Origin: Alkaliphilus metalliredigens QYMF
Lineage (GTDB): Bacteria; Bacillota; Clostridia; Peptostreptococcales; Natronincolaceae
Direction of reading: 5' to 3'
Assembly: GCF_000016985.1 (NCBI RefSeq)
Contig: NC_009633.1
Span: 2,211,539-2,275,538 of the forward strand
Length of the DNA stretch: 64,000 bases
A program made the position numbers and the translations under genes. How positions within the stretch are numbered: position 1 is the first letter of the stretch; the number at the start of each line of letters is the position of its first letter. The notes under the pieces are model-generated. The model had not been told where the DNA came from and did not search any database. It saw only the letters and a program-made list of their open reading frames with translations. Below, piece after piece: positions 2,696 through 19,580 of this stretch.

Positions 2696-5434
2696 ATGCA
2701 CTCTCATAATTATTCAGATTCAATCAGTACTCTAAACTTATCAACAAGATCATATAATACTCTTAGGAGAGAAGGTATACATACCACTAATGATTTACTA
2801 AATTGCTCAAAGGATGATATCATAAATTTTCGAAGTGTTGGTGTGAAGAGTTTAGAAGAGATCGTTAATGCGATTGATAGTTTAAACAAATATAAGTTAG
2901 AGATGTATTCTGAAAACATGTTGAATAAAAAACGTAATCATAAAACCTTTGTAGGCCATGATGGTTTAAAATACATCGATATTGCAATCGAGAACTTAAA
3001 TTTAAGTGTTCGTGCATTTAATTGTTTGAAATCAACGAGTGTTGATTATTATTCTCAATTAATTGATGTATTAGATGAAGAGTTAATTGCTATTCCAAAC
3101 ATGGGCAGAAAGACTCTTTTAGAATTAGAGCACATTAAAAAGACAGTTCAACCTACGAAATACGTCGAGGACAATAAGGGGCCACAAACTGATATAGAGG
3201 ACATAGGGTGTAAAATTTTTGCATCTATAAGTGAAAAAATAAATATTAAGCCTAAAAAGCTCTTTGAAATATTTAAACAAGTATACTCAAATTACATCAT
3301 TGAAAAGGACGTTACTCTTGATATCAAAGATATCCTAAAAGACAAAATATTTATGAAAACTTTATATGAAAATGAATATATGAAGTCAGTTATTAATGAC
3401 TATGTGCTTAACATAATTCGGGAGAACAATTATGGTTGTGATGAAAACTATTTGTTTGATAGAATCCCGTATTGCTTTAAGTTTAGAGAAATAATGAATG
3501 AATCTTTAAATGATTTGCTTATTAGAAATGACATAGATCTACTTTATGATGATAGATTTGTAGCGATTTATAATAGCTTTGTTATTGGAGCTAAGGATTA
3601 TCTAAACGATAAAGAATATGATGTTATTTGGCAAAGAATTCAAGGAAAAACTTTAGTGGATGTAGGAAAGACAAAAGATGTTTCTAAACAAAGGATACGT
3701 CAAATAGAGGAAAAGGCAATTAAAAAGTTGAATAATGCATCTATAAAATTCAAAGAAGATGTTTATTCAGATATTTTTAATAGATATATTATACTTAAAG
3801 AGGATTTTAAGATTGCATTCAATGATGATGAAGCTTATCAATACCTTGTAATTAGATACCATACCACTTCAGAAAAAGACAGGTTATTAAAAAAACCTTT
3901 GGAAAATATTTTACACGATAAAGATATTCCAATGTTTTTCAAGAGAGCTTGTGAAAAAGCAATATATAAAAATTATGTTAAGATAGGAAACGAATACATT
4001 CCATGTTCGCGAAATAGTATAAGTAAGTATGTTCTCAAGAATTTCGGTTCCAATGATCTAAACTTTGTCGAGTATTCTGATATATATTTTTCAATACTTA
4101 AAGACATAGATAAAATTAATGATCCCAAATTAGAAGTAATGGAGCGAGGATATGAAAATAAGTTAGCTGCTAGCAATATAGTACTTTGGAAATATGGGAA
4201 AAAATTTAGGTATTACAATATTGATTCATACGATTTTACAGATTTACTAAGTAGATTAAATATTAATCAGTATAAAAATGTAGAATATTCTACACTTAAA
4301 TTTTTCCGATTATTACCTGAACTTATGAAAGTTTATGATATCCGAGACGAATATGAACTTCACAACCTTTTAAAGAAAATTTGCAGCTCTGATGAATACC
4401 CAACTGTTAATTTTAAGCGTATGCCAAACATTGAATTTGGAAATGCAGATAGAGATAATCAAGTATTGGAATTATTAATAACATTAGCACCTATATCAAA
4501 TAGTGATTTTGCCAAAGAATATGAAAATGAGTATGGAGTTGCAGCTAATACGGTACTAGCTAATTATATGGGCAATTTTGATCAGTATTTTTATAATGGT
4601 GTTTATAAAATTGATTTCCCTGCATTACCTAATATAATTGCACAAAGATTAAAGCAAATATTAATAGAAGATTTTTATATGTTATCAACGATAAGAGAAA
4701 TATATCAAAAAGAATTTCCACAAGCCGACAAAAAACTTTTGAATCCGTTTTCATTAAAAAGCATTGGATTTAAAGTGTATTCAAATTATGCTGTAAGCGA
4801 CATCTATAGTTCAGCATCAGAATACTTTAATATGTTGTTTACGAAAACTGATATTACAGATTTAGTAAGAATTGCATCTAGTGTTAAAGAGATAATATCT
4901 TACACATCACAACTGTATAAGCTAAAGTCAGATTACGAAATAATTGAATTTATGCCAAACAAGATTATTCATTTTAGAAAATTGAAAGAATTTGGCATTA
5001 CTAAAGAAATGTTAAACGAATATCGTAATGATGTTCTTAACTTTGTAGGAGATGGAAAGTATTTCACATTGTTTTCATTAAGAAATGAAGGCTTTACTCA
5101 TGAATTAGATGATCTTGGTTTTGACGATTGGTTCTATACTTCAATTCTGATTGAAGATAAGTCTAATATTTCGTATCAAAGAATTGGTGGTAATAAAGTA
5201 ATGCTTAGTGGAAATTTTAATATACGATTTGAAGAGTTTTTAGAATATATAGTATTTAGTCAGGAATCGTTATCTATTGATATACATGATTTATCTGATA
5301 TCTTCAAGCAACAATACAATGTAAACGTTAATACAAGAAAATTGATTGATATCGTTAGATACAGCTCTCTGTACTATGATGCAATCTCAGAAAAGATTTT
5401 TGCAGACTACGATACTTATTATGAGGTGGTATAA
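2696..5434 (+). CDS. Large DNA-binding protein: two RNA polymerase alpha-subunit C-terminal-domain-like HhH modules plus a sigma-70 region-4-like HTH; C-terminal ~550 aa unknown. First gene of the candidate defence cassette.
   Basis: Residues ~10-60 'LNLSTRSYNTLRREGIHTTNDLL...FRSVGVKSLEEIVNAI' and ~95-145 'LNLSVRAFNCLKSTSVDYYSQLI...IPNMGRKTLLELEHI' follow the alpha-CTD pattern (L.LSVR..N.L..AGI.T..DL......L....N.G.KSL.EI). Residues ~325-350 'VGKTKDVSKQRIRQIEEKAIKKL' follow the sigma region 4.2 pattern (G.S.eRVRQIE.kAlrKL). Strong RBS. A 2-nt gap separates it from the next gene. Confidence 0.75.
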   Translation: MHSHNYSDSISTLNLSTRSYNTLRREGIHTTNDLLNCSKDDIINFRSVGVKSLEEIVNAIDSLNKYKLEMYSENMLNKKRNHKTFVGHDGLKYIDIAIENLNLSVRAFNCLKSTSVDYYSQLIDVLDEELIAIPNMGRKTLLELEHIKKTVQPTKYVEDNKGPQTDIEDIGCKIFASISEKINIKPKKLFEIFKQVYSNYIIEKDVTLDIKDILKDKIFMKTLYENEYMKSVINDYVLNIIRENNYGCDENYLFDRIPYCFKFREIMNESLNDLLIRNDIDLLYDDRFVAIYNSFVIGAKDYLNDKEYDVIWQRIQGKTLVDVGKTKDVSKQRIRQIEEKAIKKLNNASIKFKEDVYSDIFNRYIILKEDFKIAFNDDEAYQYLVIRYHTTSEKDRLLKKPLENILHDKDIPMFFKRACEKAIYKNYVKIGNEYIPCSRNSISKYVLKNFGSNDLNFVEYSDIYFSILKDIDKINDPKLEVMERGYENKLAASNIVLWKYGKKFRYYNIDSYDFTDLLSRLNINQYKNVEYSTLKFFRLLPELMKVYDIRDEYELHNLLKKICSSDEYPTVNFKRMPNIEFGNADRDNQVLELLITLAPISNSDFAKEYENEYGVAANTVLANYMGNFDQYFYNGVYKIDFPALPNIIAQRLKQILIEDFYMLSTIREIYQKEFPQADKKLLNPFSLKSIGFKVYSNYAVSDIYSSASEYFNMLFTKTDITDLVRIASSVKEIISYTSQLYKLKSDYEIIEFMPNKIIHFRKLKEFGITKEMLNEYRNDVLNFVGDGKYFTLFSLRNEGFTHELDDLGFDDWFYTSILIEDKSNISYQRIGGNKVMLSGNFNIRFEEFLEYIVFSQESLSIDIHDLSDIFKQQYNVNVNTRKLIDIVRYSSLYYDAISEKIFADYDTYYEVV

Positions 5435-5436
5435 TT

Positions 5437-6651
5437 ATGAATTTATTAAGAGAAGGATTAGAACAAAAGGTTGTAATACCAAATGAAACAGATAAGAGAC
5501 TTGTTATTGACAACATTTCTAAGAATTATCCTGTTTATAAAATTAAATTAGAAAAATTACATTATAATGATCAGAATGATCGTATTGCAACTTGGATGGC
5601 ACAATATAAGATTGAGAATAATATTGACAAGTTAGATCCATCTGATAGAGCTAATTATAATAATATTATTCATGAATTTATTACAGAGAGTAATAGAGAC
5701 GCTATAAAGAAAACTCAAGCAAATATAAAGATAGTGGGACAACAGGAACCGGGAGTAGTTCTTTCGGACGGTAGAATTATTGATGGAAATAGAAGATTTA
5801 CTTGTTTAAGAAATATTCAAAAAGAAACTGGAAAAACCCAGTATTTTGAAGCTGTAATTATAGATCATAGTATCGAAAATAATGCAAAACAAATCAAAAT
5901 GCTAGAGCTAATGTTGCAACATGGGGTAGATGAAAAAGTAGGATATAACCCAATTGATAGACTTGTAGGAATTTATACTGATATTATAGAAACTAAATTA
6001 CTTTCAGTAAAAGAATATGCTGATAGCGTTAATCTAAGTGAGTCTGACATTCAATTGGAAGTAGATAAAGCTAAGCTTATGGTCGATTTCTTAGAGTTTA
6101 TTAACGCACCTAAACAATTTCACTTAGCTCGCCACTTTAATCTTGCAGACCCATTGAAAGAATTGTATTTAATGTTGAAAAAGGTTAAGGATGATGATAA
6201 AAAAGAAGACTTAAAAAATGCGGTCTTTGCTCAATTCTTGACGCAACCGTTTGGTGATACAACTAGACATGTTAGAAAGATTAAAAAAATTGCTTCAAGC
6301 AGCAAATTTTTAAGCGAATTTTTAGAAGAACAGATGGAGATTGTTGAAAAAGTTTGTGACGAACTTGAAAAATATCCTACAGTATCAAATAAAGAAATAA
6401 ATATAATTAGATCGAATGAAAAGATAAAAAGCGACTTCTTGCATTCTACGGAAAAATATGTAAATAAAGTGGATGGTGACACTATACGAAATCAACCAAT
6501 AAAGCAAGCAGAAAAATCTTTCGATTCTCTCGATTTAATTGATATCAAAATTATTAAGAAATTAAATCAAGAACAAAAAGATGAAATTCGTGAAAAACTA
6601 GATGTGATTGATCAAATCGTACTAGACATTAGGAGAGAATTAGATGTTTAG
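5437..6651 (+). CDS. ParB/Sulfiredoxin-fold (DUF262/DGQHR-like) domain protein; second gene of the candidate defence cassette
   Basis: 'QQEPGVVLSDGRIIDGNRRFTCLRNI' matches the ParB N-terminal / DUF262 arginine-finger motif (DG[QN][HQR]R). Translationally coupled to both flanking genes. Confidence 0.6.
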   Translation: MNLLREGLEQKVVIPNETDKRLVIDNISKNYPVYKIKLEKLHYNDQNDRIATWMAQYKIENNIDKLDPSDRANYNNIIHEFITESNRDAIKKTQANIKIVGQQEPGVVLSDGRIIDGNRRFTCLRNIQKETGKTQYFEAVIIDHSIENNAKQIKMLELMLQHGVDEKVGYNPIDRLVGIYTDIIETKLLSVKEYADSVNLSESDIQLEVDKAKLMVDFLEFINAPKQFHLARHFNLADPLKELYLMLKKVKDDDKKEDLKNAVFAQFLTQPFGDTTRHVRKIKKIASSSKFLSEFLEEQMEIVEKVCDELEKYPTVSNKEINIIRSNEKIKSDFLHSTEKYVNKVDGDTIRNQPIKQAEKSFDSLDLIDIKIIKKLNQEQKDEIREKLDVIDQIVLDIRRELDV

Positions 6652-9214
6652 TGAATTAAATCTGCGTTCAACTTATTCAACTTATGAAAATGATATTGGA
6701 GCTGAGTTTTATGTACCAGTCTTGAGCAAATGTACGCACTATGATAGAGCATCTGCTTATTTTTCCGCAAAAGCCTTAGCAAATTATGCTAAAGGACTTG
6801 AGTTGTTTGCAAGCAACGGGCATAAATTTAGACTTATTGTATCTTCTGAAATTGGAGAAGATGATTATAATGAAATAATTCATGGATATCAATTAAGAGA
6901 AAAACTAAAAAATGATATGTTAGGTAGGTTGAATGAGCAGTTGTCAGCTGAAGAAGAAGCTAATATTTCAAATTTAGCGTATTTAATATCAATAGGTACA
7001 ATTGATATTAAAATGGCTTTTACTAAAAAAGGAATTTTTCATGATAAGTTCGGAATCATGAAAGATTTTGCTGGGAATATTATATGTTTCAGAGGATCAA
7101 ATAATGAAACTGATGCCGCGTTTCATGCAAATTATGAAGCGTTCGATATCACATGCAGTTGGTTAGCTTCCGCATTTGATTATTCTAAAATTACGAAAAG
7201 TATTGAATCTTTTAACAATTTATGGGAAAACCGAGCTAACGATGTTTATGTCTGCGATGTAGATGAAGTGGTTTATAAGAGAATTTTAGAATTTAGTAAA
7301 GGAGAGATTATTTTCGAACCTGTATTGCTAAAGGAGAATTGTTTGATACTAGATCATAAAAATAATTACTTGGAGTTAAATATCAAGATTGATCCTTCGA
7401 TTATATGGAATAATCAGATATATAAATTAAGATTAAAAAGATATATTGATTCAGAGTTAAGCAAACACGGAAGAATTGTTTTCAAGAAACAGCTTACTTA
7501 TCCCATCTACAAAAAAATTATCAATATTTTACAAGTTGATGCTCAAAAAAGAGGATATGCTTTTTATGTAACAAATAGACTACATACTTATATTAAAGAT
7601 CGTGAACTGAATATAAAAGAGCGGGCAAATGTCGGACTAGCAATAAAGCAACAGGCACCTGATATATGCGAAAGATTTAACAAATACAAGAACATTGTTG
7701 ATAATGAAATGGTAAGAAAACTTAGAGAAAAACAAGTATGGGATTCGTTTTATATGTGTATCATGAGAAAAGCTGCGAATTTTTCAGTACCTGGATCAGG
7801 AAAAACATCTTCTGTTTTGGGGGTTTATGCTTATTTAAATCAGCAAAAATTGGTAGACAAAATTATTATGGTTGGTCCAAAAAATTCTTTTGGATCATGG
7901 GTTGATGAATTCAGCCTTTGTTTTGAATCTAGGAAACATTTAAAACTTTTTAATGTCCAAGAATATAAGTTATTAGAACAAAAAAAAAATGCACTATTAT
8001 ATGATACAAAAGATAAAAATTTACTTCTCTTTAACTATGAAAGTCTAAACTCAATAATGGGTGAAATTAAACGAATTGTTGATAAAAGAACATTGCTAGT
8101 ATTTGATGAAGTCCATAAAGTAAAAGCAATTGACGGATTAAGAGCAGAGCATGCATTAGAAATATCAAAATTGTCTTATTATACAATTGCAATGACGGGT
8201 ACTCCTATACCTAATTCATATGCGGACATAAAAAACTTATTGGAAATATTGTATCATGATGAGTACGATGAGTATTTTGGTTTTTCAGAGGAACAATTAA
8301 AGAATCCAACTGATGTTGATATTGTTGAAATTAATAATAGGATTCAACCTTTTTTTTGTCGAACAACAAAAGGACAATTAGCTGTGCCAAATGCCAATGA
8401 TGATATCATAATCACCACTGTAGCTAGTGAATATGAGAATAGAATATTTCACATTTTATTATTAAAATATGCGAAGAATAAACTAACATTAATTATCAGG
8501 TTATTACAATTAGAATCAAATCCCCAAATGTTATTAAGATCATTAGAGGATAATGGAGAAGATTATTCAGATATTCTTGATACGTATGGCGATATTGATG
8601 ATATTGATTTTAAAGATTATTCTTCTGAAATAGTTACACTAATTAATTCAATAGAAAAAACTCGGAAATTTAATGCTTGCATTGAACAGACTTTAAAACT
8701 TAATTTTCAAAATGAACCGGTTATAATTTGGTGTATTTTTATTGACTCAATACTCAAGTTATCATCAGAACTTCAATCAAAAGGACTTAGAGTTGGGAGT
8801 ATTTATGGTTCAATTGAACCTAAAGAGAGAGAGTTGATTTTAAAATTATTTAAGGAAAAAAAACTTGACGTATTGATTACGAATCCGCATACACTTGCAG
8901 AATCTGTATCATTACACTCTGCTTGCCATAATGCTATATACTATGAATATAGTTATAATCTTGTTCATTTATTGCAATCAAAAGATAGAATTCATCGACT
9001 TGGATTGCCAGATAATCAGTATACACAATATTATTATTTGCAGAACGAGTTTCTAACCAGAGATAATGAAGTATTCTCTTTAGATAAAAAAATTTATGAA
9101 CGATTACATGAAAAAGAAAGAATTATGTTACAGGCGATTGAAAATAACAAGTTAGAACAGTTAAATTCAGTTGAAGAAGATATTGAACTGATTTTCAAAG
9201 ATTTAAATGTTTGA
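6644..9214 (+). CDS. PLD-family (HKD) nuclease fused to an SNF2-like SF2 helicase; third gene of the candidate defence cassette
   Basis: N-terminal 'FHDKFGIMKD' is HKD-like. Walker A 'VPGSGKTSSV', motif II 'LLVFDEVHKV' (DEVH), motif III 'MTGTPIPN', motif VI 'QSKDRIHRLG' (SNF2-type Q..DR.HR.G). The start overlaps the previous gene by 8 nt. Confidence 0.8.
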   Translation: MFSELNLRSTYSTYENDIGAEFYVPVLSKCTHYDRASAYFSAKALANYAKGLELFASNGHKFRLIVSSEIGEDDYNEIIHGYQLREKLKNDMLGRLNEQLSAEEEANISNLAYLISIGTIDIKMAFTKKGIFHDKFGIMKDFAGNIICFRGSNNETDAAFHANYEAFDITCSWLASAFDYSKITKSIESFNNLWENRANDVYVCDVDEVVYKRILEFSKGEIIFEPVLLKENCLILDHKNNYLELNIKIDPSIIWNNQIYKLRLKRYIDSELSKHGRIVFKKQLTYPIYKKIINILQVDAQKRGYAFYVTNRLHTYIKDRELNIKERANVGLAIKQQAPDICERFNKYKNIVDNEMVRKLREKQVWDSFYMCIMRKAANFSVPGSGKTSSVLGVYAYLNQQKLVDKIIMVGPKNSFGSWVDEFSLCFESRKHLKLFNVQEYKLLEQKKNALLYDTKDKNLLLFNYESLNSIMGEIKRIVDKRTLLVFDEVHKVKAIDGLRAEHALEISKLSYYTIAMTGTPIPNSYADIKNLLEILYHDEYDEYFGFSEEQLKNPTDVDIVEINNRIQPFFCRTTKGQLAVPNANDDIIITTVASEYENRIFHILLLKYAKNKLTLIIRLLQLESNPQMLLRSLEDNGEDYSDILDTYGDIDDIDFKDYSSEIVTLINSIEKTRKFNACIEQTLKLNFQNEPVIIWCIFIDSILKLSSELQSKGLRVGSIYGSIEPKERELILKLFKEKKLDVLITNPHTLAESVSLHSACHNAIYYEYSYNLVHLLQSKDRIHRLGLPDNQYTQYYYLQNEFLTRDNEVFSLDKKIYERLHEKERIMLQAIENNKLEQLNSVEEDIELIFKDLNV
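7980..7989 (+). repeat. A10 homopolymeric tract inside the PLD-helicase coding region
   Basis: caa aaa aaa aat encodes QKKN at 7978-7989. Longest coding homopolymer seen in the cassette. Confidence 0.9.
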
Positions 9215-9514
9215 TATCATTATAGCAATTTCAAACAATTATTTGGTTATGTGTTTAATTAAGTATTAATTATTTAATTGCGTTGAATAAAGCTTTCAAA
9301 TATGGCACAATTATTTGGAAGTTTTATTGCCCACAAATCTTACTTGTCATAAAGTTATAGAAGGATAAAAGTTTTTGATAAATATCCTTATATGGTTTGA
9401 AAAGCAAGAAAGAAAAGTCAAACAGAAATGTATCATATTATGCTGAGAAGTATATTAGAAAAATTAAGTAATACTTATGGCAAACAACGTCCCCTTGGTT
9501 AATTTGGTGATAGG

Positions 9515-9556
9515 CTACCCCAGATCTAAGTCTTTAAAGACCTGGATCTGGGGTAG
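9515..9556. terminator. Long near-perfect hairpin between convergent genes (bidirectional terminator)
   Basis: ctaccccagatctaagtctttaaagacctggatctggggtag. A 12-bp outer stem plus an inner palindrome agtctttaaagact. It sits between the stop of the + gene (9214) and the stop of the - gene (9569). Confidence 0.6.
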
Positions 9557-12816: not shown

Positions 12817-13151
12817 TCTATCTCACCCTCCCTCTTCAACCTATTAGACACATAACTCAGATTATGGTCTCAAAAATTATAAATTTCATATGAATAAATT
12901 TATTATAGCATAAAAGGAACCAAGTGAAGGAAGCCACAACTAAGGGGACGGCTCATCAGTGATGAAAAAAAGAAAGCCAACAGCTTTGTCTTTTTATTTT
13001 GCCTGTACTTTCACCTAGAAACATATTAATATGTAAAATGAGAAGGGATTTTGCATACTTTCAAGGAATATTTAGATAAATGAAGTCCTTTTGCATATTA
13101 ACCAGGACAGAGTAAAAATCATTAGAAAAAAAGCTGTTGGAGGTTCATCCA

Positions 13152-14546
13152 ATGAAATTATTTGAGATTGTACCAGATAAATTTTTTAGTATTCTTTCAT
13201 CGAAAAATAAAGAAATCTATAGTGATTGTTTGTTTATACTATTTAACCAATATACAGGAAACACATCCTTTGGTATAGATAGAGAAATTGTGGTGCATGT
13301 TTTGACAGATTATTTTGAGGAGCTGGGGGAAGTAGAGCTCTTTCAGGATGAGGATGTGACTGTGAAATCTGCTCGAGAAGAGGCTAACTTCATCATTAGA
13401 AAGCTTGATGAGTGTGGGTGGATAGATATTGAGACCACCACCAGCTATAAGCAAATCATTAACCTGACGGATTATACTGTTATGATGCTTGAAACATTAG
13501 AAAAGATTGTTAAGAATGAACAACTTGAGTACCAGGGCTATGTCTATACCATTTATTCTATATTATTTGGCAACGACAATGATCAGTATAATGTGATCCT
13601 GGATCAGGTTCATGAAAATACCATGAAGCTGATGAATGGGCTTAAAACCTTAAACGCCAACATCAAAAAATACATTGGTAGAATCACAGAGCAAAAAACC
13701 TCTGAGGAGATTATGAAGCTTCATTTTGAAGGCTATACCCAGGATATTATTGATAAAGGGTACCATCGATTGAAGACCTCGGATAATGTGAGTAAGTTTA
13801 GGCCTAAAATTCTTGAAAAGCTTGAAATTATTAAGCGAGACAAGGCCTATTTAGAGCGGGCCAGTCAACAAGAGGTTGACATCGAAAAGGCAGAGAGTCT
13901 AGAGGCTGCCAAGGAAAAAATAATGGGTCAATTGAATGGCATTATCTATGTTTTTGAAAATATGGATGAAACCATTGGTGAGATTGACAGGAAAAACACC
14001 CAATATATTAGGGCCTCCTTAACCAGGGTGAAGTATCTTTTAAATAGTTCCAAGGATATAGAGGGACAGATAAACGAAATCCTTAAATATGTGGTGGAGC
14101 GGATTGAAAGTGGTGAGATTGACCTAAAAAATGATCGCATCGATGAAATCGACAGCCTTTTTCGGTTTTATCCCCAGAGCTTCATAGACAATAAATCCCT
14201 GTACATAGCCACAGAAGGGAAAAAGGATTTTCAGTCACAAAAGCTGGATGAAGATCAAGTCATGAGACAAGAGGAAAGAGAAAGACGAATTAACGAAATT
14301 AAGGAAAAGAAGAAAAAGAGCTTAAGTAGAGGTAACATTGACACATATGTATTAGAGATGTTAGGGGATAGAGCGGTGATGAAGGCATCTAATTTACCCT
14401 TGGAAAATAAGCTGGATTTCATTAAGCTAATTTATGTATTAGTGTATGCTAAAAGTCGATTGGTTCATTATAAAGTGAATAAATTAGAGGAATCTATTGA
14501 AATAAAGGGATTTAAGTTCAATGACTTTGAAGTTTGGAGGAAATGA
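13152..14546 (+). CDS. jetA: Wadjet JetA (MksF-like kleisin-like subunit)
   Basis: ~465 aa, first of four co-directional overlapping genes with the JetA-B-C-D size pattern. RBS GGAGGT 7 nt before ATG 13152. The track start TTG 13137 lacks an RBS. Confidence 0.7.
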   Translation: MKLFEIVPDKFFSILSSKNKEIYSDCLFILFNQYTGNTSFGIDREIVVHVLTDYFEELGEVELFQDEDVTVKSAREEANFIIRKLDECGWIDIETTTSYKQIINLTDYTVMMLETLEKIVKNEQLEYQGYVYTIYSILFGNDNDQYNVILDQVHENTMKLMNGLKTLNANIKKYIGRITEQKTSEEIMKLHFEGYTQDIIDKGYHRLKTSDNVSKFRPKILEKLEIIKRDKAYLERASQQEVDIEKAESLEAAKEKIMGQLNGIIYVFENMDETIGEIDRKNTQYIRASLTRVKYLLNSSKDIEGQINEILKYVVERIESGEIDLKNDRIDEIDSLFRFYPQSFIDNKSLYIATEGKKDFQSQKLDEDQVMRQEERERRINEIKEKKKKSLSRGNIDTYVLEMLGDRAVMKASNLPLENKLDFIKLIYVLVYAKSRLVHYKVNKLEESIEIKGFKFNDFEVWRK

Positions 14547-14547
14547 A

Positions 14548-15174
14548 ATGGGTATGACAGAGAAGTACAATCACTTAAATAGTAAGCAAAAGGATGAATT
14601 TGCTAGAATTGCAAACAAGCTATTATCCATTGGTTTTTTAACCAAGAAGAAGGAAGATAATAAAAAAGATTATTATTTTATTGAAAATCATAAGGAGATC
14701 TTCGCCAACTATTTTGAAATATCCGGTTGGGAGCTGGAGATTGATGATACATATGGTGTGATTCATCTTGTGAATCACCATGATCAAAATAGGCACCATT
14801 TTAAGCTTTATGAAAGTATCATTTTGCTGGTATTGAGACTGTTATATTATGAAAAAATGCAGGAGCTGTCCTTGGCTGAAAATATGGTCATCACAGTGGA
14901 TGATCTTCACCAAAGATTTTTTGCCCTTAAGCTGAGGGACAAGCCATTGGACAAGACCACCCTCAGAAGTGCCCTGCGACTTTTTCGGAAATTCAACTTG
15001 ATTGATTTAATTGATTCAGATATTAGTCTGGGAGACGCTAGAATGATTATCTACCCCACCATTTTATTGGCTGTCAGGGTCGAGGATATTCGAAAGGTAT
15101 ATGAAAAACTAGATACCTATAGAAGTGGGGAGGTGGTAGAGGATGAAGAAGCTGACGAAGATCAAGTTGATTAA
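14548..15174 (+). CDS. jetB: Wadjet JetB (MksE-like)
   Basis: ~208 aa acidic protein between jetA and jetC. The start overlaps the jetA stop (TGAaATG). Confidence 0.7.
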   Translation: MGMTEKYNHLNSKQKDEFARIANKLLSIGFLTKKKEDNKKDYYFIENHKEIFANYFEISGWELEIDDTYGVIHLVNHHDQNRHHFKLYESIILLVLRLLYYEKMQELSLAENMVITVDDLHQRFFALKLRDKPLDKTTLRSALRLFRKFNLIDLIDSDISLGDARMIIYPTILLAVRVEDIRKVYEKLDTYRSGEVVEDEEADEDQVD

Positions 15175-18100
15175 TTGGCATTATCTGACCAATGTAACCA
15201 TTGATATTCATGACAACTGCCTCATAACCGGTGACAATGGTTCAGGAAAATCTACCATTCTCGATGCCATCCAATATGTACTAACGGGAGGTCGGGCAAG
15301 GTTTAATAGTGCTGCCCATGAAAAGGCAAAAAGGGATTTGTTGGGCTATGTACGCTGTAAGACAGGGAAAGATACCAATGCCTACGAAAGAAAGGGAGAT
15401 GTGACAGCCCATGTGGCCCTAGAGTTTTATGAGGAAAGTAAAAAGAGATCCTTTGTTTTGGGGGCTGTCATTGACTCATCCAGCGACCTAAGCAATCCAA
15501 AGGTGATTTTTTATCGAATCGTGAACCAAAAGATAGAGGACAAACTATTTCTTAATGGTGCTGTCCCTAAAAATATCAGTCAATTTAAGGTATCGACGAA
15601 ATCTTTTCAAACAAAAATATTGCCAACCCAAACTGCAGCCAGAGAGGATTTTAATCATTCATTAGGCTCCATTGGGCATCGGTTTTTTGAATTATTACCT
15701 AAAGCCTTAGCCTTTAAAGCCATAGAGAATGTCAAAGATTTTGTCTACTCATATATCTTAGATGAGAAAGAAGTCAACATTGATTATTTAAAGGAGAATG
15801 TCCGGACCTATATGGATTTTGAAAGGGTTCTTGAAGGAATTAAGCAAAAGCTAGAGCGTTTAGAGGAGATTCAAAAAGAATATGAAGAGGTCTTGCGGGT
15901 TGAAGAAAATATCAGAATTCACGATTATATTATTTTAAAATCCCAGAAGGATACGGAGGAAGAAAAGTTAAAGTCAAAAAACATGCTCTTGAGTAAACGT
16001 CAGGAGCAGTCCTCAAAGGAAAAGGAAAGTGAAGTTCAGCATATCAATCAGCTAGACCTATTGAAAGAGCGAGAAAGTGACATTCGAAAGAGTCTATTAA
16101 CCAATGATACCTATCAGTTAATGAGGAGCCTAGAGCATGACATTAAGCTCCTTGAAAACTCAAAACGGGAATTAGACAATGAACAGCAAGGATTCATGAC
16201 AGCATTGCAGACGGAGCTTGATAGAATGAAGAAAATCCACGGCTTGAATATTGAGATCAAGGGGTTAAAGGATTTTGTAGAACGCAGTCAAACCCTAGAC
16301 AATCCACCATCTGTAGGGGACTTTTGTGAATCCGCCTTTGTCCTGGAGGAAAGCTTTAATGAAGTCAGTGGACAATTCAACGAAAACTTATTTAAACTGA
16401 AATCCAGTAAAGAAGATAAGGAAAAGCAACTTAGGAAAGTCAATGAGGAAATTCAGATATTAGATAGTAAAAAGCTTGTTCATAATAAGGAAGTCATTGC
16501 CCTTCAAAGGGTGATCGGCAGTGAATTGGAAAAGCTTGAGGGGAAGCGGATTGAGGCTAAAATTATTTGTGAGTTACTAGAGGTATCAGATCCGATATGG
16601 CAGGATGCGGTGGAGGGTTATTTAAACACCCAGCGGTTTAACTTACTTGTGGATCCCCAATATTTTGATGATTCATTACATGCCTATGAGCGGTATAAAA
16701 AATCCAATGGCATACATGGGGTGGGCCTCATTAACACCCAACAACTTGAAAAATATCAAGAGTGTGATGAAAACAGTCTAGCGGCGGTGGTCACCTCTAA
16801 AAATAAGTATGCAAAGTATTATATTAATATGGTTTTAGGTAAGGTGATACGATGTGACGCTGTTGAGAATTTAAAGAAGTACCAACGATCCATCACCCCA
16901 ACCTGCATGGTGTATCAAAATCATACCGCCCGTCAAATCAATCCTCAGATTTATAAGAAGCCCTATATTGGTTCTGAAGCCTATAAAAAGCAGCTTGTGT
17001 TAAAGGTAGAAGAGCAAAAACAATTAAAAGAAGTGCTCCTGGGATTGGGAGAAGAAATAGAAAAATTGAATGAAATTATGAAACTAATGATAAAACCTAG
17101 GTTTGAGTACTTAAGAGAGCACAGTGATGTACAAATCAAGGTGAATCAGAAGCATGAGGAGATAGGAACCAAGCAGGAAGAGTTAAAGCGAATCGATAGA
17201 AGTACCATCATGGAATTAGATCTAGAGCTGGAGAGCATTAAAAAGACAATCGATGCAAAGGAGAAGGAACTCAAGACCATTAACGGTCGTGTCATTCGGC
17301 TAGATTTCGAAATGGAGCAACTGGAAAAAGAGATCAATCAGTTTGAAGATCGGGTTCATGGCATAGCCAAACAAATCATTAATTATGAAACCCAACACGG
17401 AGAAATACTGGATAAGGCCAATGAACGCTATCAGGCTGGACTCAAGCTAAGGAAGCCCTATGATATACACCAGAATTTTACCCGAAGTAGACAGGGATTA
17501 GATACAAAGCTCAATAATGCTGAGAACGAATTAATGTACCAGCAAAGGCAATATAATAATGATTATCACTTCGGTGGGGCTGAGGGCAAGGCTGGCATGG
17601 AGGATTTTAACCGAGAAAACAAGGTATTAAGGGAAAGTAAGGTCATTGAGTATGAGGAAAAGATCAATGGTGCAAGACAAAAGGCTGAAGAGGAGTTCAA
17701 GGAGCATTTCATCTCAAAGCTACAAGAGAATATTGTATCGGCTCAAAATGAATTTAAAAAATTGAATCAAGCATTGAAGGGAATCCAATTTGGGCAAGAT
17801 GAGTATAAATTTTATTTCAGTGCCAATAAGCAATATGATAAGTTCTATAGGATGATTATGGATGAAAACAACCTAGGAGGAAACACCCTGTTTACAGGGG
17901 TCTATCGTCAGAAGCATAAGGAAGCCATGGAAGAATTATTTGAACGAATTACAGTGGATAATGATGAATCTAGAAAGGCCCTAGAGAAGTTTACGGACTA
18001 TCGAACATTTATGGATTATGATATTAAGATCTATCACAGTGATGGGAGTACCTCTAGCTTTGCCAAGGTCTGTCGTGAAAAAAGTGGTGGTGAGACCCAA

Positions 18101-18388
18101 ACCCCTTATTATGTAGCCATTGCTGCATCCTTTGTACAGCTATATGATAGTGGTATTCACCAGGACAAGCTAGGCATTATTTTATTAGATGAAGCCTTTG
18201 ATAAAATGGATGAAAATCGTATCGACAGTATGATGTCCTTTTTTAGTAAACTAGACTTGCAGCTGTTGATTGCATCACCCCCACAAAAGATTGAGACAAT
18301 CGGACCCCATGTGGGGACAACCTTAGTTGTAACGAAGGAAGATAATTTTAGCTGGGTGGAGGCATTTAGAATCGATGAAGAATTATAA
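15143..18388 (+). CDS. jetC: Wadjet JetC (SMC/MksB-like ATPase)
   Basis: Walker A 'ITGDNGSGKSTILDAI'. Long coiled-coil arms. Signature and Walker B 'SGGETQ...IILLDEAFDKMD'. 1081 aa. Confidence 0.85.
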   Translation: MKKLTKIKLINWHYLTNVTIDIHDNCLITGDNGSGKSTILDAIQYVLTGGRARFNSAAHEKAKRDLLGYVRCKTGKDTNAYERKGDVTAHVALEFYEESKKRSFVLGAVIDSSSDLSNPKVIFYRIVNQKIEDKLFLNGAVPKNISQFKVSTKSFQTKILPTQTAAREDFNHSLGSIGHRFFELLPKALAFKAIENVKDFVYSYILDEKEVNIDYLKENVRTYMDFERVLEGIKQKLERLEEIQKEYEEVLRVEENIRIHDYIILKSQKDTEEEKLKSKNMLLSKRQEQSSKEKESEVQHINQLDLLKERESDIRKSLLTNDTYQLMRSLEHDIKLLENSKRELDNEQQGFMTALQTELDRMKKIHGLNIEIKGLKDFVERSQTLDNPPSVGDFCESAFVLEESFNEVSGQFNENLFKLKSSKEDKEKQLRKVNEEIQILDSKKLVHNKEVIALQRVIGSELEKLEGKRIEAKIICELLEVSDPIWQDAVEGYLNTQRFNLLVDPQYFDDSLHAYERYKKSNGIHGVGLINTQQLEKYQECDENSLAAVVTSKNKYAKYYINMVLGKVIRCDAVENLKKYQRSITPTCMVYQNHTARQINPQIYKKPYIGSEAYKKQLVLKVEEQKQLKEVLLGLGEEIEKLNEIMKLMIKPRFEYLREHSDVQIKVNQKHEEIGTKQEELKRIDRSTIMELDLELESIKKTIDAKEKELKTINGRVIRLDFEMEQLEKEINQFEDRVHGIAKQIINYETQHGEILDKANERYQAGLKLRKPYDIHQNFTRSRQGLDTKLNNAENELMYQQRQYNNDYHFGGAEGKAGMEDFNRENKVLRESKVIEYEEKINGARQKAEEEFKEHFISKLQENIVSAQNEFKKLNQALKGIQFGQDEYKFYFSANKQYDKFYRMIMDENNLGGNTLFTGVYRQKHKEAMEELFERITVDNDESRKALEKFTDYRTFMDYDIKIYHSDGSTSSFAKVCREKSGGETQTPYYVAIAASFVQLYDSGIHQDKLGIILLDEAFDKMDENRIDSMMSFFSKLDLQLLIASPPQKIETIGPHVGTTLVVTKEDNFSWVEAFRIDEEL

Positions 18389-19580
18389 AAAGATGATACT
18401 CAATCATTTGGTAGATAAATATGAAAAAAGTTCTTTGTACCGTGGGGATAATAAGGTCAATGTAACCATTGGCATGACCATCAATAAAAAAAACCTATCG
18501 GATTATTTTAATGAATGGGATTATACATTGAAAAAGGAGATCAATGAACAGGCCTTAAGTCTACAGGAGGAAGCGCTCATTGAAATCCAGTGGAAGAAGT
18601 TTCAAGAGGGAAACATCCTAGACAAATTAAAATTGAACATTGAATCACTGGATCGTGTTTATGAAGTATTAAAAAGACAGCCAAAGAGTCAGCTAGAGAA
18701 TGACGTTGGCACCATTGTCATGGGTTATTGTGATAGAACGGATTGGCTGGGTGATTTTGCAAGGGATATGAAAGAGAAGCTAGTTCAAAAGGGCAGTATT
18801 AAAAAATACTTGGACATAGAGGATCGGGTAGAGGTCAAGGATGTATTCATGGCTCTGGATCAAATACGAGCCCAGACCGATGAAATACCCAAGCGGGTTT
18901 TCAGTATAAGGGTATTTTCAGATTCCAAACGTTTTGAAAGGGTAGAGTCTAAAGTGGTGAGAATCATGAGGGACTACGGGCCCTATGAAGTGGATATGGA
19001 TATATTGGCGGAGGAAAATATTATCCAAAATCCTAGCTATGTCTTTCTGAAGGGAAAAGCTGTACTGCTCTGTAATGAAGAAACAATCAATTTAGAAAAG
19101 GTGGATGGTGAGATTGGTCTAGGTGCTGGTTTAATTGATAATCTAAGCTTCAAGACAATCGATGCAAAGAGAGTTTTAACCATTGAAAATTTAACAACCT
19201 TTCATTGCTATGAACCTAAGGATGAACTGGTGATCTATTTAGGTGGTTATCATAATGCCACAAGACGAAGACTCCTAAAGAAGATCCATGGGTTTAATCC
19301 TGATTTAGCCTTTTACCATTGGGGAGACATTGACCTGGGTGGCTTTAGAATTTTAAATCACCTTAGGAATAAGACTGGTATTAATGTGAAGTCTTATCGG
19401 ATGGATAGAGAGACATTAGAAATGTATAAAAATCATACCAAGAAGATAAAAAGTGAGCAATACAGTGGTGAATTAACAAAACTGTTGGAAAATGAGGAGT
19501 ATATAGAATTCCATGAAGTGATCAGATATATGATTGAGAATAATATGATATTGGAACAGGAAGCATTGGATATAGGATGA
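18375..19580 (+). CDS. jetD: Wadjet JetD (Toprim-domain nuclease subunit, MksG-like)
   Basis: C-terminal Toprim-like 'IYLGGYHN...FYHWGDIDLGGFRIL'. 401 aa. Overlaps jetC by 14 nt. Confidence 0.8.
   Translation: MKNYKKMILNHLVDKYEKSSLYRGDNKVNVTIGMTINKKNLSDYFNEWDYTLKKEINEQALSLQEEALIEIQWKKFQEGNILDKLKLNIESLDRVYEVLKRQPKSQLENDVGTIVMGYCDRTDWLGDFARDMKEKLVQKGSIKKYLDIEDRVEVKDVFMALDQIRAQTDEIPKRVFSIRVFSDSKRFERVESKVVRIMRDYGPYEVDMDILAEENIIQNPSYVFLKGKAVLLCNEETINLEKVDGEIGLGAGLIDNLSFKTIDAKRVLTIENLTTFHCYEPKDELVIYLGGYHNATRRRLLKKIHGFNPDLAFYHWGDIDLGGFRILNHLRNKTGINVKSYRMDRETLEMYKNHTKKIKSEQYSGELTKLLENEEYIEFHEVIRYMIENNMILEQEALDIG

Follow-up and report, generated by a model that had tools for sequence, protein, structure and literature searches.

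In Alkaliphilus metalliredigens QYMF, three adjacent genes (g1, g2 and g3) encode what we judge, with moderate confidence, to be an unnamed, self-contained and mobile three-protein DNA conflict system, most probably a restriction-like defence against mobile DNA. We infer the defensive function from several properties of the family. The genes form an exact unit with conserved synteny and unrelated flanks, fusions occur, g1 has diverged faster than the other subunits, and related pairs are embedded in restriction-modification (R-M) operons; in addition, g3 carries a PbeA-like HKD domain, an HNH nuclease and a Wadjet system make up the local setting, and the family is nearly absent from phages. 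Counted against defence are the light enrichment of defence genes in the flanks, the majority of members without a recognisable nuclease, and the fact that no basis for self/non-self discrimination was found.

The three-gene cassette and its boundaries

The cassette lies near the start of the window, by which we mean the whole 64-kb stretch of DNA analysed, and consists of the following genes:

2696-5434, + strand: g1, ORF of 912 aa
5437-6651, + strand: g2, ORF of 404 aa
6644-9214, + strand: g3, ORF of 856 aa

The ORF coordinates agree with the original prediction of three co-directional genes with a 2-nt gap between g1 and g2 and an 8-nt overlap between g2 and g3. The cassette is also more AT-rich than its surroundings, as had been claimed: its GC content is 0.27-0.31 throughout, against 0.34-0.43 outside (0.34-0.36 at the upstream HNH gene, 0.35-0.40 over Wadjet and 0.41-0.43 at 9.5-12.5 kb, where TPR and ECF sigma genes lie). 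The expected HNH nuclease upstream and complete Wadjet system downstream were both recovered; the triad thus has a type IV phosphorothioate-dependent HNH enzyme on one side and Wadjet I on the other. The HNH gene (649-1521), 1.2 kb upstream of the triad, matches over its full length the NCBIfam model NF045808, which describes a phosphorothioated-DNA-binding restriction endonuclease (7e-113). The Wadjet system is a complete type I JetABCD at 13137-19580. The SBD-HNH gene is not conserved beside the triad in other genomes.

The limits of the unit are sharp. DNA similarity to the closest loci (71-79%) starts at 2678-2710 and stops at 9205-9226, that is, it runs from the ATG of g1 to the stop codon of g3, and the comparison of related loci revealed no conserved non-coding DNA, such as a parS-like site, travelling with the triad. 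g1-g2-g3 has been transferred across phyla as a single exact unit. Outside this unit, 5' of g1, lies a repeat:

2451-2480 and 2621-2650, + strand: two copies of a 30-nt direct repeat with the core TGTTGACAATCCA

The 13-mer core occurs twice in the 64-kb window, both times in the repeats, and is absent from all 123 of 123 related loci. The repeats may be local promoter or operator elements. A putative promoter near 2640 has a TTGACA hexamer with a -10-like hexamer only 14-15 nt away; a consensus promoter scan does not include it among its listed sites, which at 62 are not in excess of the 53 +/- 7 found in shuffled sequence.

Architecture of the three proteins

The largest protein, g1, is an array of DNA-binding modules, comprising two alpha-CTDs, one sigma-A region 4 and winged helices:

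2702-2905, + strand: alpha-CTD copy 1 (aa 3-70)
2963-3130, + strand: alpha-CTD copy 2 (aa 90-145), the best Pfam stretch
3146-3595, + strand: helical region of variable sequence (aa 151-300), more divergent than any other segment
3602-3730, + strand: sigma region 4 HTH (aa 303-345; Pfam Sigma70_r4)
3743-5431, + strand: C-terminal tandem winged-helix array (aa 350-912)

Pfam matches to RNA_pol_A_CTD (twice, 2.9e-35) and Sigma70_r4 (2.3e-06) bear out the earlier view that g1 is built from modules of the transcription machinery; its AF2 model has a pLDDT of 86.3. The profile of the second alpha-CTD matches alpha-CTD chains in the PDB at 1e-16, and in the family alignment G137 is invariant and R106 and N109 almost so; the conserved residues presumably align with the DNA-contact positions of alpha-CTD. 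The sigma module is nearest to primary sigma A/RpoD (profile match to SigA/RpoD region 4 chains at 5e-10), with R333, R335 and Q336 invariant and a family consensus, TRERIRQIE, that we take to be that of the sigma-70 4.2 helix. Scans of g1 with Pfam, NCBIfam and further models picked up no known reader of modified bases, whether SRA, SBD or another. Among the three subunits g1 is the least conserved in 56 of 56 loci, with a mean identity of 38% versus 55% and 56%, and its column entropy reaches 2.4-3.1 bits at aa 151-300 versus 1.1-1.5 bits at aa 480-630.

The second protein, g2, belongs to a family of 883 clusters at 50% identity and is modelled with a ParB/Noc-type fold that bears a conserved arginine motif:

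5782-5796, + strand: D-G-N-R-R motif of g2 (aa 116-120), equivalent of ParB box II (GERR)

First scans against Pfam, NCBIfam and PADLOC, limited to E <= 0.01, returned no match. In the AF2 model (pLDDT 94.4) an NTP-binding-type domain at the N-terminus is followed by a helical middle part and by a long C-terminus that is also helical. In a Foldseek search against the PDB its top matches are ParB with CDP or CTPgS, Noc, pNOB8 ParB-N and Spo0J (E 1e-5 to 1e-3), spanning the nucleotide-binding domain and the HTH region. Because the model matches these CTP-binding ParB, Noc and Spo0J structures, the ParB-like label is right. All of 75 diverse homologues share G117, N118, R119 and R120, and the g2 profile pairs D-G-N-R-R with IIAGERRW of M. 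xanthus ParB, at an E of 0.36 that is not significant alone. The nearest Pfam family is ddrB-ParB (PF18763), which is matched below threshold by 22 of the 75 members (best E 3.6e-4); the window g2 scores 15.7 bits, short of the 27.6-bit cut-off for membership. Pfam ParBc matches none of the 75. The original prediction had described g2 as ParB/DUF262-like, and the ParB half of that description stands. The DUF262 half does not: Pfam GmrSD_N (DUF262), a domain with the motif DGQQR, has no match in g2 or among the families listed for the 75 members.

The third protein, g3, is predicted from its sequence to be a translocase on double-strand DNA, of the SNF2 family and with all motor motifs intact, joined in this genome to an intact predicted HKD nuclease:

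6644-7333, + strand: PbeA-like HKD/PLD nuclease domain at the N-terminus (aa 1 to ~230)
7790-9004, + strand: SNF2 motor (aa 383-787; Pfam SNF2-rel_dom, Helicase_C)

Pfam identifies SNF2-rel_dom (2.5e-14), ResIII and Helicase_C (2.6e-10), the first and last of which pass the Pfam cut-offs, and the nearest solved relatives of the motor are DDM1 (5e-10), CHD1L, SsoRad54 and INO80. Motor motifs I, II, III and VI show little or no variation: GSGKT, DExH (DEVH in the window g3), TGTP and QSKDRIHRLG, the last resembling QxxxRxxRxGQ, are each kept in 75-77 of 77 sequences. The best match of the motor is phrog_62, a phage helicase (3e-49, far better than any PADLOC helicase). At the N-terminus, Pfam PLDc_2 stays below threshold (23.6 bits against a 27-bit cut-off), and we assign a PLD domain because the match to PADLOC PbeA is strong (3.2e-66, residues 2-222, with the best stretch at residues 2-219). 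The predicted catalytic residues of the HxK(x)nD...GSxN signature, H133-D-K135 and G151-S-N-N, recur in 32-33 of the 33 long g3 forms. The predicted fusion of an HKD nuclease to an SNF2 motor is thus confirmed, but not as a core part of the system. Of 78 distinct g3 sequences, 31 have the HKD domain and 45 lack it, with at least eight gain or loss events, which makes the domain an optional module, repeatedly gained or lost. No consistent replacement gene was found in the nuclease-less members, which make up over half of the family.

The likeness to PbeA raises the question whether g3 is PbeA itself and the locus a phosphorothioate-dependent Pbe/Dnd restriction module. PbeABCD was described by Xiong 2019 (PMC6459918) and re-annotated later, with an ABC-ATPase and DndE core as its definition (PMC10853773). 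Both PbeA and g3 join an N-terminal HKD/PLD endonuclease to an SF2 motor, PADLOC PbeA models match g3 at 3e-66 to 6e-18, and the upstream SBD-HNH gene is phosphorothioate-related. However, the best stretch of all five PbeA models falls within the first ~220-240 residues (two had further stretches), the motor of g3 is clearly SNF2, and the PbeA-like domain is missing from those 45 of 78 g3 sequences. The triad has no CxC ABC ATPase (PbeC), DndE-like two-RHH protein (PbeD), small disordered protein or dnd genes; the partners of g3 are an alpha-CTD/sigma-4/winged-helix protein and a ParB-like one. PbeB, PbeC, PbeD and dndCDEA are absent from the window neighbourhood, where the family-library scan covered ORFs up to 21 kb and the only partners are g1 and g2; none of them is among the 25 most recurrent families of the flank scan. 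Moreover, since the upstream HNH enzyme cuts phosphorothioate-modified DNA, the host is unlikely to modify its own DNA in this way. Gene content effectively refutes a Pbe/Dnd identity, which we regard as extremely improbable.

Distribution, variants and possible function

The family occurs in no fewer than 557 of some 185,600 species genomes, including many gut Bacillota and Collinsella, and spans at least six phyla, with hosts in Bacillota, Fusobacteriota, Spirochaetota, Actinomycetota, Melainabacteria, Desulfovibrionaceae and one alphaproteobacterial MAG. Of 80 species genomes that contain a g2 relative, 70 keep the order g1-g2-g3 on one strand, in line with the co-conservation that the original prediction demanded. 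The remaining 10 loci comprise six cut by contig ends, one g2-g3 fusion and three without g3; g1 accompanies g2 in every case, and an SNF2 ATPase does so in nearly every case. The flanks are unrelated to each other, with matches to 154 Pfam families among 146 flanking ORFs from about 60 loci. The most recurrent families are a MutH/Sau3AI-type REase (4/146 ORFs), an integrase (3/146) and a C5 methylase (2/146), a modest enrichment for defence genes; the proposed defence islands are therefore variable, as expected, but only modestly defence-like. Neither the window nor the flank scans revealed a methyltransferase linked to the triad. Embedding in phages, raised at the outset as a point to check, is almost absent: a search of 50,697 phage records gave 4 partial matches, and one of 2.9 million viral contigs gave 32 distant relatives. 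Overall, the computational tests proposed with the prediction all came out in its favour.

The system also has variants. In some of them g2 carries HEPN_Swt1, an HEPN RNase (a HEPN-fused relative scores 18.2 bits against GmrSD_N, whose cut-off is 33.2 bits), and in others a standalone HIRAN protein is found. Together with the gain and loss of HKD, these variants point to an effector modularity typical of immune systems. A g2-SNF2 fusion was found in one Staphylococcus genome, and an SNF2 protein bearing three alpha-CTDs exists. Distant g2-like and g3-like pairs are embedded in tightly coupled R-M operons, beside a type III Mod-Res in one operon and a C5 methylase, a DpnII-like REase and a NOV_C nuclease in others. 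Such ParB-like and SNF2 pairs, lying within type II/III R-M operons, point to an accessory layer of restriction systems that has so far gone unrecognised.

The same modules could, on the other hand, be the weaponry of a mobile element, serving plasmid or ICE establishment, restriction evasion or the exclusion of rivals. We consider this unlikely. The sole Pfam affinity of g2 is to ddrB-ParB, the ParB clade of polyvalent proteins, and this affinity and that of the g3 motor to phrog_62 are typical of phage and plasmid proteins, so that the triad could serve such an element. ParB and SNF2 modules are known from polyvalent proteins (PMC5512222), other triads lie in an ICE-like element or share one element with MobL and a recombinase, and 66 copies are plasmid-borne, 52 of them in Enterococcus faecalis. 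These plasmid copies are distant from replication genes, however, and on the plasmid examined the triad sits in an accessory region, outside the transfer/leading region. Some triads are solitary chromosomal insertions among housekeeping genes with no mobility genes nearby, and the triad is devoid of a methylase, whereas the DarB-type dyad consists of SNF2 and an adenine methylase (PMC5512222). HKD and HEPN effectors fit an attack on nucleic acids; as this could also serve competition between elements, the mobile-element account overlaps with the defensive one.

An altogether non-immune role is conceivable as well, in which a ParB clamp like those of KorB, Noc or VirB and an RNA-polymerase-associated, RapA-like SNF2 ATPase form a DNA-organising or transcription module that g1 targets to promoters, where it would silence or remodel transcription. 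The best structural matches of g2 are indeed CTP-dependent ParB and Noc, and g1 retains the sigma 4.2 helix and the residues aligned with alpha-CTD DNA contacts. KorB reportedly silences through clamp sliding, and the nuclease is missing in over half of the family. Yet a conserved HKD in about 40% of members and the HEPN fusions are unlike a housekeeping regulator, as are the patchy, transfer-driven distribution, the low GC relative to the flanks and the relatives inside R-M operons. No ParA was found in any triad neighbourhood examined, plasmids included, and no parS-like DNA travels with the unit. We rate a regulatory role as quite improbable.

If the triad is a restriction-like defence, g1 would be its specificity or sensor subunit, recognising target DNA, perhaps through AT-rich UP-element and -35-like features, or being triggered on it. 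g2 would link g1 to the motor as a switch or clamp under the control of a nucleotide, and g3 would move along the duplex while its HKD domain cuts DNA; since each chain has one HKD motif, the nuclease is probably dimeric. In HKD-less relatives the g1-g2-SNF2 core may act without cutting or depend on another effector, which in some variants could be the HEPN RNase fused to g2.

A different role for g1 can be imagined from the fate of RNA polymerase during infection. Sigma region 4 is targeted by T4 AsiA and phage G1 gp67, and alpha-CTD by phi29 p4 and T4 Alt/ModA. g1 might be an integrated decoy that mimics the polymerase surfaces seized by phage or plasmid hijackers, analogous to the integrated decoys in plant NLR receptors. 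A hijacker captured by g1 would then license the g2 switch and the SNF2 motor against the invader DNA, with or without a nuclease. We offer this as a speculative and rather unlikely idea.

As a defence system, the triad would be a widespread module with Enterococcus faecalis resistance plasmids among its carriers, and it could have consequences for phage therapy and for the spread of plasmids in enterococci. It would also give the ParB-CTPase fold an additional role, in immunity, and the long and short g3 forms offer a natural experiment on the need for a nuclease.

Comparison with known systems

The claim that the triad corresponds to no named system held up: PADLOC and NCBIfam system models assign it to none, the partners that define DISARM, Zorya and GmrSD are absent, and a literature search found no paper covering it. 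ZorD, DrmD, BrxHI/II and DpdE resemble g3 in that an SNF2/SF2 motor and a nuclease act in a multi-gene anti-invader operon. Their PADLOC models match g3 weakly (1e-8 to 1e-4), all far under the family cut-offs. In Zorya, ZorD matches the SNF2 motor only (1.4e-08), and the membrane motor ZorA/ZorB and ZorC have no counterpart here. DrmD, the class 1 DISARM protein, gives g3 35.6 bits where its cut-off demands 610, and the helicase DrmA, the DUF1998 protein DrmB, the PLD protein DrmC and a methylase are missing; likewise, the triad has neither the PglZ/PglX of BREX nor Dpd genes.

Defence proteins with an RNA-polymerase-derived module, as in g1, are found in PglW and in MzaA, a sigma-70-family protein of Mza. 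In PglW (BREX type 2) an alpha-CTD-like domain is followed by winged helices (PMC12839542). The PADLOC matches of g1 to PglW and MzaA are weak (1e-05 and 7e-05) and cover only small common domains; in contrast to both, g1 joins two alpha-CTDs to a sigma-A-like region 4 and has no kinase, nuclease or STAND domain.

Similarly, g2 resembles the N-domain and HTH region of the CTP-dependent ParB clamps (ParB/Spo0J, Noc, KorB and VirB), whose box II arginines recur in it as an invariant G-N-R-R. It differs from canonical ParB in falling below the ParBc threshold and in having neither a ParA partner nor a travelling cis site. Polyvalent proteins of phages and plasmids, which combine ParB and SWI2/SNF2 domains (Iyer et al. 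2017, PMC5512222), come close through the sub-threshold ddrB-ParB affinity of g2 and the phrog_62 match of g3. They are, however, single giant injected proteins, whereas the triad consists of separate genes without metallopeptidase or methylase modules, is mostly chromosomal or located in plasmid accessory regions, and includes in g1 a subunit that is not known from polyvalent proteins.

Finally, GmrSD, BrxU and SspE couple a ParB-superfamily NTP-binding domain to a DNA nuclease, and the triad might accordingly be read as a modification-dependent (type IV) restriction enzyme of the SauUSI/GmrSD kind, split across three genes. The winged helices of g1 would read modified DNA, and g2 would work like the ParB-like NTPase of GmrSD, BrxU and SspE. 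The absence of a linked methyltransferase, the PLD nuclease followed by an SF2 motor in g3, the many winged-helix modules of g1 and the regulation of nucleases by ParB-like NTPase domains in GmrSD-type enzymes (PMC5512222) all agree with this. We nevertheless find it distinctly improbable. g1 has no detected modified-base reader, a sequence search of solved structures (E <= 0.01) gave no match to SauUSI, not one member of the family scores high enough for DUF262/GmrSD_N, and the alpha-CTD and sigma-4 modules are left unexplained. GmrSD-type enzymes, moreover, hold DUF262 and DUF1524 in one protein, whereas g2 is nearer to ParB/Noc in fold and is not accompanied by a DUF1524. If the triad is a defence system, its RNA-polymerase-derived sensor and ParB/Noc switch driving an SNF2 motor would be unprecedented in named systems.

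Conservation and surroundings of the triad

The candidate cassette consists of three genes whose predicted open reading frames and coupling proved exact: g1, g2 and g3 all lie on the plus strand, with a 2-nt gap followed by an 8-nt overlap. The lower GC content ascribed to the cassette (0.27-0.31) was borne out against the TPR/ECF-sigma genes (0.41-0.43) and Wadjet (0.35-0.40), and the HNH gene upstream stands at 0.34-0.36. The HNH restriction-like nuclease and the complete Wadjet system proposed to flank the cassette are likewise present.

Features of the window around the triad
649-1521, plus: HNH_2-domain protein, full-length match (7e-113) to NCBIfam NF045808, 'phosphorothioated DNA-binding restriction endonuclease'
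2451-2480 and 2621-2650, plus: two copies of a 30-nt direct repeat upstream of g1, 80% identical and 170 nt apart
2696-5434, plus: g1, 912 aa
5437-6651, plus: g2, 404 aa
6644-9214, plus: g3, 856 aa
9569-12816, minus: higher-GC block (41-43%) with a 776-aa TPR-repeat protein, a 113-aa ORF without matches and an ECF sigma factor (Sigma70_r2 and r4_2)
13137-19580, plus: type I Wadjet operon JetA, JetB, JetC, JetD, near-full-length PADLOC matches (E 2e-82 to 0)

The product of 649-1521 is a predicted type IV enzyme directed at PT-modified DNA; its presence suggests that the host's own DNA would be free of PT modification. A gene of this type is not conserved beside the triad in other genomes, nor is the small ORF at 2175-2393 conserved with the cassette. 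The higher-GC block stands between cassette and Wadjet, and an inverted repeat at about 9519-9555 resembles a terminator of its TPR gene; a terminator scan downstream of g3 gave nothing convincing in this AT-rich DNA. Both copies of the 30-nt repeat share the 13-mer TGTTGACAATCCA, which includes TTGACA, a perfect -35 hexamer, and has no further copy in the 64-kb window and none in 123 related loci. The pair may be a duplicated promoter or operator, and the sigma region 4 of g1 raises the possibility of autoregulation at this site. A promoter scan returned 62 promoter-like sites against 53 expected, which is uninformative in AT-rich DNA, and the promoter proposed at 2640 received no confirmation.

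Counted with one genome per species, relatives of g2 occur in at least 557 species genomes. The original prediction had called for a search for co-occurrence across genomes, and this revealed that the order g1-type gene, g2, g3 on one strand is kept in 70 of the best 80 of these loci, amid unrelated flanks; the rest comprise six loci cut by contig ends, one g2-g3 fusion and three without g3. Hosts among the matches listed include Bacillota, Fusobacteriota, Spirochaetota, Actinomycetota, Melainabacteria, Desulfovibrionaceae and an alphaproteobacterial MAG. Compared with its closest relatives, the window shows 71-79% DNA similarity that starts at 2678-2710 and ends at 9205-9226. As these limits coincide with the ends of the triad, the transferred unit is exactly this triad.

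The flanks were scanned with Pfam using 146 ORFs, three very large ones being left out. They match 154 Pfam families, most often MutH/Sau3AI-type restriction endonucleases (4), integrases, DUF1351 and RNase_T (3 each), with C5 methylases and McrB-like AAA_5 proteins (2 each) further down, and none of the 146 is a conserved partner of the triad. Some copies are solitary insertions amid housekeeping genes, and others lie inside an element with a relaxase or serine recombinase. Plasmids carry the triad in 66 cases, 52 of them from E. faecalis; on the plasmid examined its place is the accessory region, where MazF, Fic and IS elements lie nearby and neither replication genes nor ParA adjoin. Among 50,697 phage genome records there were four partial matches, and the family is essentially absent from phages. 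Fic-domain genes neighbour the triad both on an E. faecalis plasmid and on the chromosome of a metagenomic Bacillota member; the two contexts are unrelated, and the adjacency may be coincidental.

Fic-domain genes adjoining the triad in related loci
L088, 2708-3310
L124, 14065-15186
L125, 7352-8473

Architecture of the three proteins

The protein g1 combines two alpha-CTD domains (Pfam 2.9e-35) with one sigma-70 region 4. With a profile built from 44 homologues, the alpha-CTDs of Firmicute RpoA are matched at 1e-16, and the sigma module finds its counterpart in primary, not ECF, sigma factors (SigA/RpoD region 4, 5e-10). Invariant or nearly so are R18, N21, G49 and K51 in the first alpha-CTD copy and R106, N109 and G137 in the second, positions equivalent to the alpha-CTD DNA-contact residues R265, N268, G296 and K298 of E. 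coli RNA polymerase. Conserved to the same degree are R333, R335 and Q336 in the sigma helix (family consensus TRERIRQIE), the equivalent of the -35-recognition helix of sigma-70. Variability is highest at residues 151-300 and conservation best at 480-630, and g1 is the fastest-evolving subunit in 56 of 56 loci. Across the family, the number of alpha-CTDs in g1 ranges from two to four. Its winged-helix array has a paralogue that forms a separate extra gene or, in Collinsella, is fused into a g1 of about 1500 aa, and a 1581-aa protein joins an SNF2 motor with three alpha-CTDs. That the RNA-polymerase modules are decoys for invaders' transcription-hijacking proteins appears rather unlikely.

No model in Pfam, NCBIfam, PADLOC or PHROG matches g2 above threshold. 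Its family is large, with 883 clusters when grouped at 50% identity, of which 228 fall at E <= 1e-30. Sequence searches of the PDB, with the single sequence or a profile, returned ParB alone at a non-significant E of 0.36, so a fold search was needed. The AF2 model is very confident (pLDDT 94.4, pTM 0.89), and among PDB entries it comes closest to CTP- or CDP-bound ParB, Noc, pNOB8 ParB-N and Spo0J, in alignments of about 250 columns, long enough to take in the HTH region as well as the nucleotide-binding N-domain. The family is invariant at N44, N47, R49, G112, the G117-N-R-R120 stretch, E157, Y170 and R280. When 75 family members were searched against Pfam, the sole family found was ddrB-ParB, below threshold and in 22 of 75 (best E 3.6e-4); ParBc, DUF262/GmrSD_N and DndB had zero matches. 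Of the assignment 'ParB/DUF262-like', the first half is therefore upheld by the fold matches, and the second falls with 0 of 75 matching GmrSD_N. Some relatives (P0133, P0148, P0207) bear a HEPN (Swt1-like) RNase domain at the N-terminus, and in one operon such a protein is followed by a HIRAN gene, with no SNF2 gene between this and the contig end about 340 nt on. In Staphylococcus pasteuri g2 is fused to the SNF2 motor, a Rosetta-stone indication of physical contact between g2 and g3.

Variant loci of the family
L090, 431-5484: g1, HEPN-g2 and a standalone 167-aa HIRAN protein, in this order
L060, 13-3087, S. pasteuri: 1024-aa g2-SNF2 fusion with a full g2-like part (aa 10-392) and the motor (aa 387-1020)
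L071-L087, Collinsella and related Coriobacteriia: g1 of about 1500-1600 aa that includes additional winged-helix array sequence

Judged from sequence, the motor of g3 is a genuine SNF2 ATPase. Its motifs GSGKT, DExH (read as DEVH in the window), TGTP and QSKDRIHRLG are fully or almost fully conserved among homologues (75-77 of 77), and K387, D488 and E489 of the window's protein belong to the motor. The nearest solved relatives are DDM1, CHD1L, SsoRad54 and INO80. PADLOC PbeA profiles recognise the first ~220 residues (best E 3e-66), which bear the signature HxK and GSxN; each chain has a single HKD motif, to which H133 and K135 belong. The family has a long form of about 856 aa (31 of 78 distinct sequences) and a short form of about 620-640 aa (45 of 78), which starts at the equivalent of residue ~240 and so lacks the HKD domain. 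The triad of an E. faecalis plasmid (WP_002362439, WP_002403427, WP_002362442) is of the short form. Members that have the domain conserve its catalytic residues, and at least eight gains or losses map onto the g2 tree. No consistent replacement nuclease lies 3' of short forms; their downstream neighbours are heterogeneous (TnpB-like, McrB-like AAA, VWA-type, unknowns), and a constant fourth gene follows in the Collinsella clade only. Its product, of 310-364 aa, is acidic and of low complexity in the middle, has a coiled coil at the C-terminus and found no match in a Pfam scan.

A role on the mobile element's side is a serious rival to defence, if an improbable one, because the defence signal of the flanks is weak, most family members are without a nuclease, and the sequence families nearest to the triad's proteins, ddrB-ParB for g2 and phrog_62 (3e-49) for the g3 motor, are of a kind typical of phage and plasmid proteins (PMC5512222). 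We count these three points against defence.

Relatives in restriction operons and a restriction-like reading

Among 2.9 million viral contigs we found 32 remote relatives with 30-50% identity over the g2 N-domain, and 26 of the 32 have a short g3-like SNF2 gene (29-36% identity). Three of these IMG/VR loci were inspected for context. In each, a ParB-like gene of ~428-430 aa is directly followed by an SNF2 gene of ~630-655 aa, and in all three the pair adjoins restriction genes.

Gene order in the inspected loci
L092, 2918-11614: type III Mod, Res, ParB-like, SNF2
L104, 5615-12154: C5 methylase, DpnII-like restriction endonuclease, ParB-like, SNF2, NOV_C (DUF3883) nuclease
L106, 3990-12062: restriction endonuclease-like, ParB-like, SNF2, NOV_C-like, ordered as in L104

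The NOV_C domain of L104 resembles that of PD-T4-1, and the ParB-like protein of these pairs is not covered by any PADLOC model. Their setting indicates that ParB-like plus SNF2 is a module recurring with restriction machinery, perhaps as an accessory of R-M systems that has so far gone unrecognised.

On balance we lean towards restriction-like defence for the triad. A nucleic-acid-targeting conflict system fits the gene content, the swapping of effectors, the fusions, the mobility as an exact unit, the fast evolution of the putative specificity subunit g1 and the R-M association of the relatives. In such a system g1 would recognise or sense the target, g2 would act as a nucleotide-gated adaptor or clamp, and g3 would translocate along duplex DNA, its long form also cleaving; no basis for sparing self DNA was found. 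The ParB-like clamp and SNF2 motor could also serve a non-immune regulatory role, and the three genes could form a split type IV enzyme; we regard the former as quite unlikely and give the latter an equally small chance.

Comparison with named systems

The proposed PADLOC check assigned the triad to nothing known: none of the PADLOC v2 systems, PDC candidates included, covers it, and NCBIfam (June 2026) has no model for it. Menshen, Azaca, MADS and Druantia were rejected, as none of their PADLOC models matches g1-g3 at E <= 0.01. Pbe-type systems are defined by a core of a CxC ABC ATPase and DndE pair (PMC10853773), which is absent at the triad, and Pbe is excluded by this gene content. No description was found in the literature searched, whose scope excluded most subscription journals; the triad is not described in a ParB-fold survey (PMC12704722), in comparative studies of Dnd and BREX (PMC10853773, PMC12839542) or in the polyvalent-protein paper (PMC5512222). 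Set against these systems, we see in the triad a putative restriction-like helicase-nuclease system whose accessory subunits are unprecedented.
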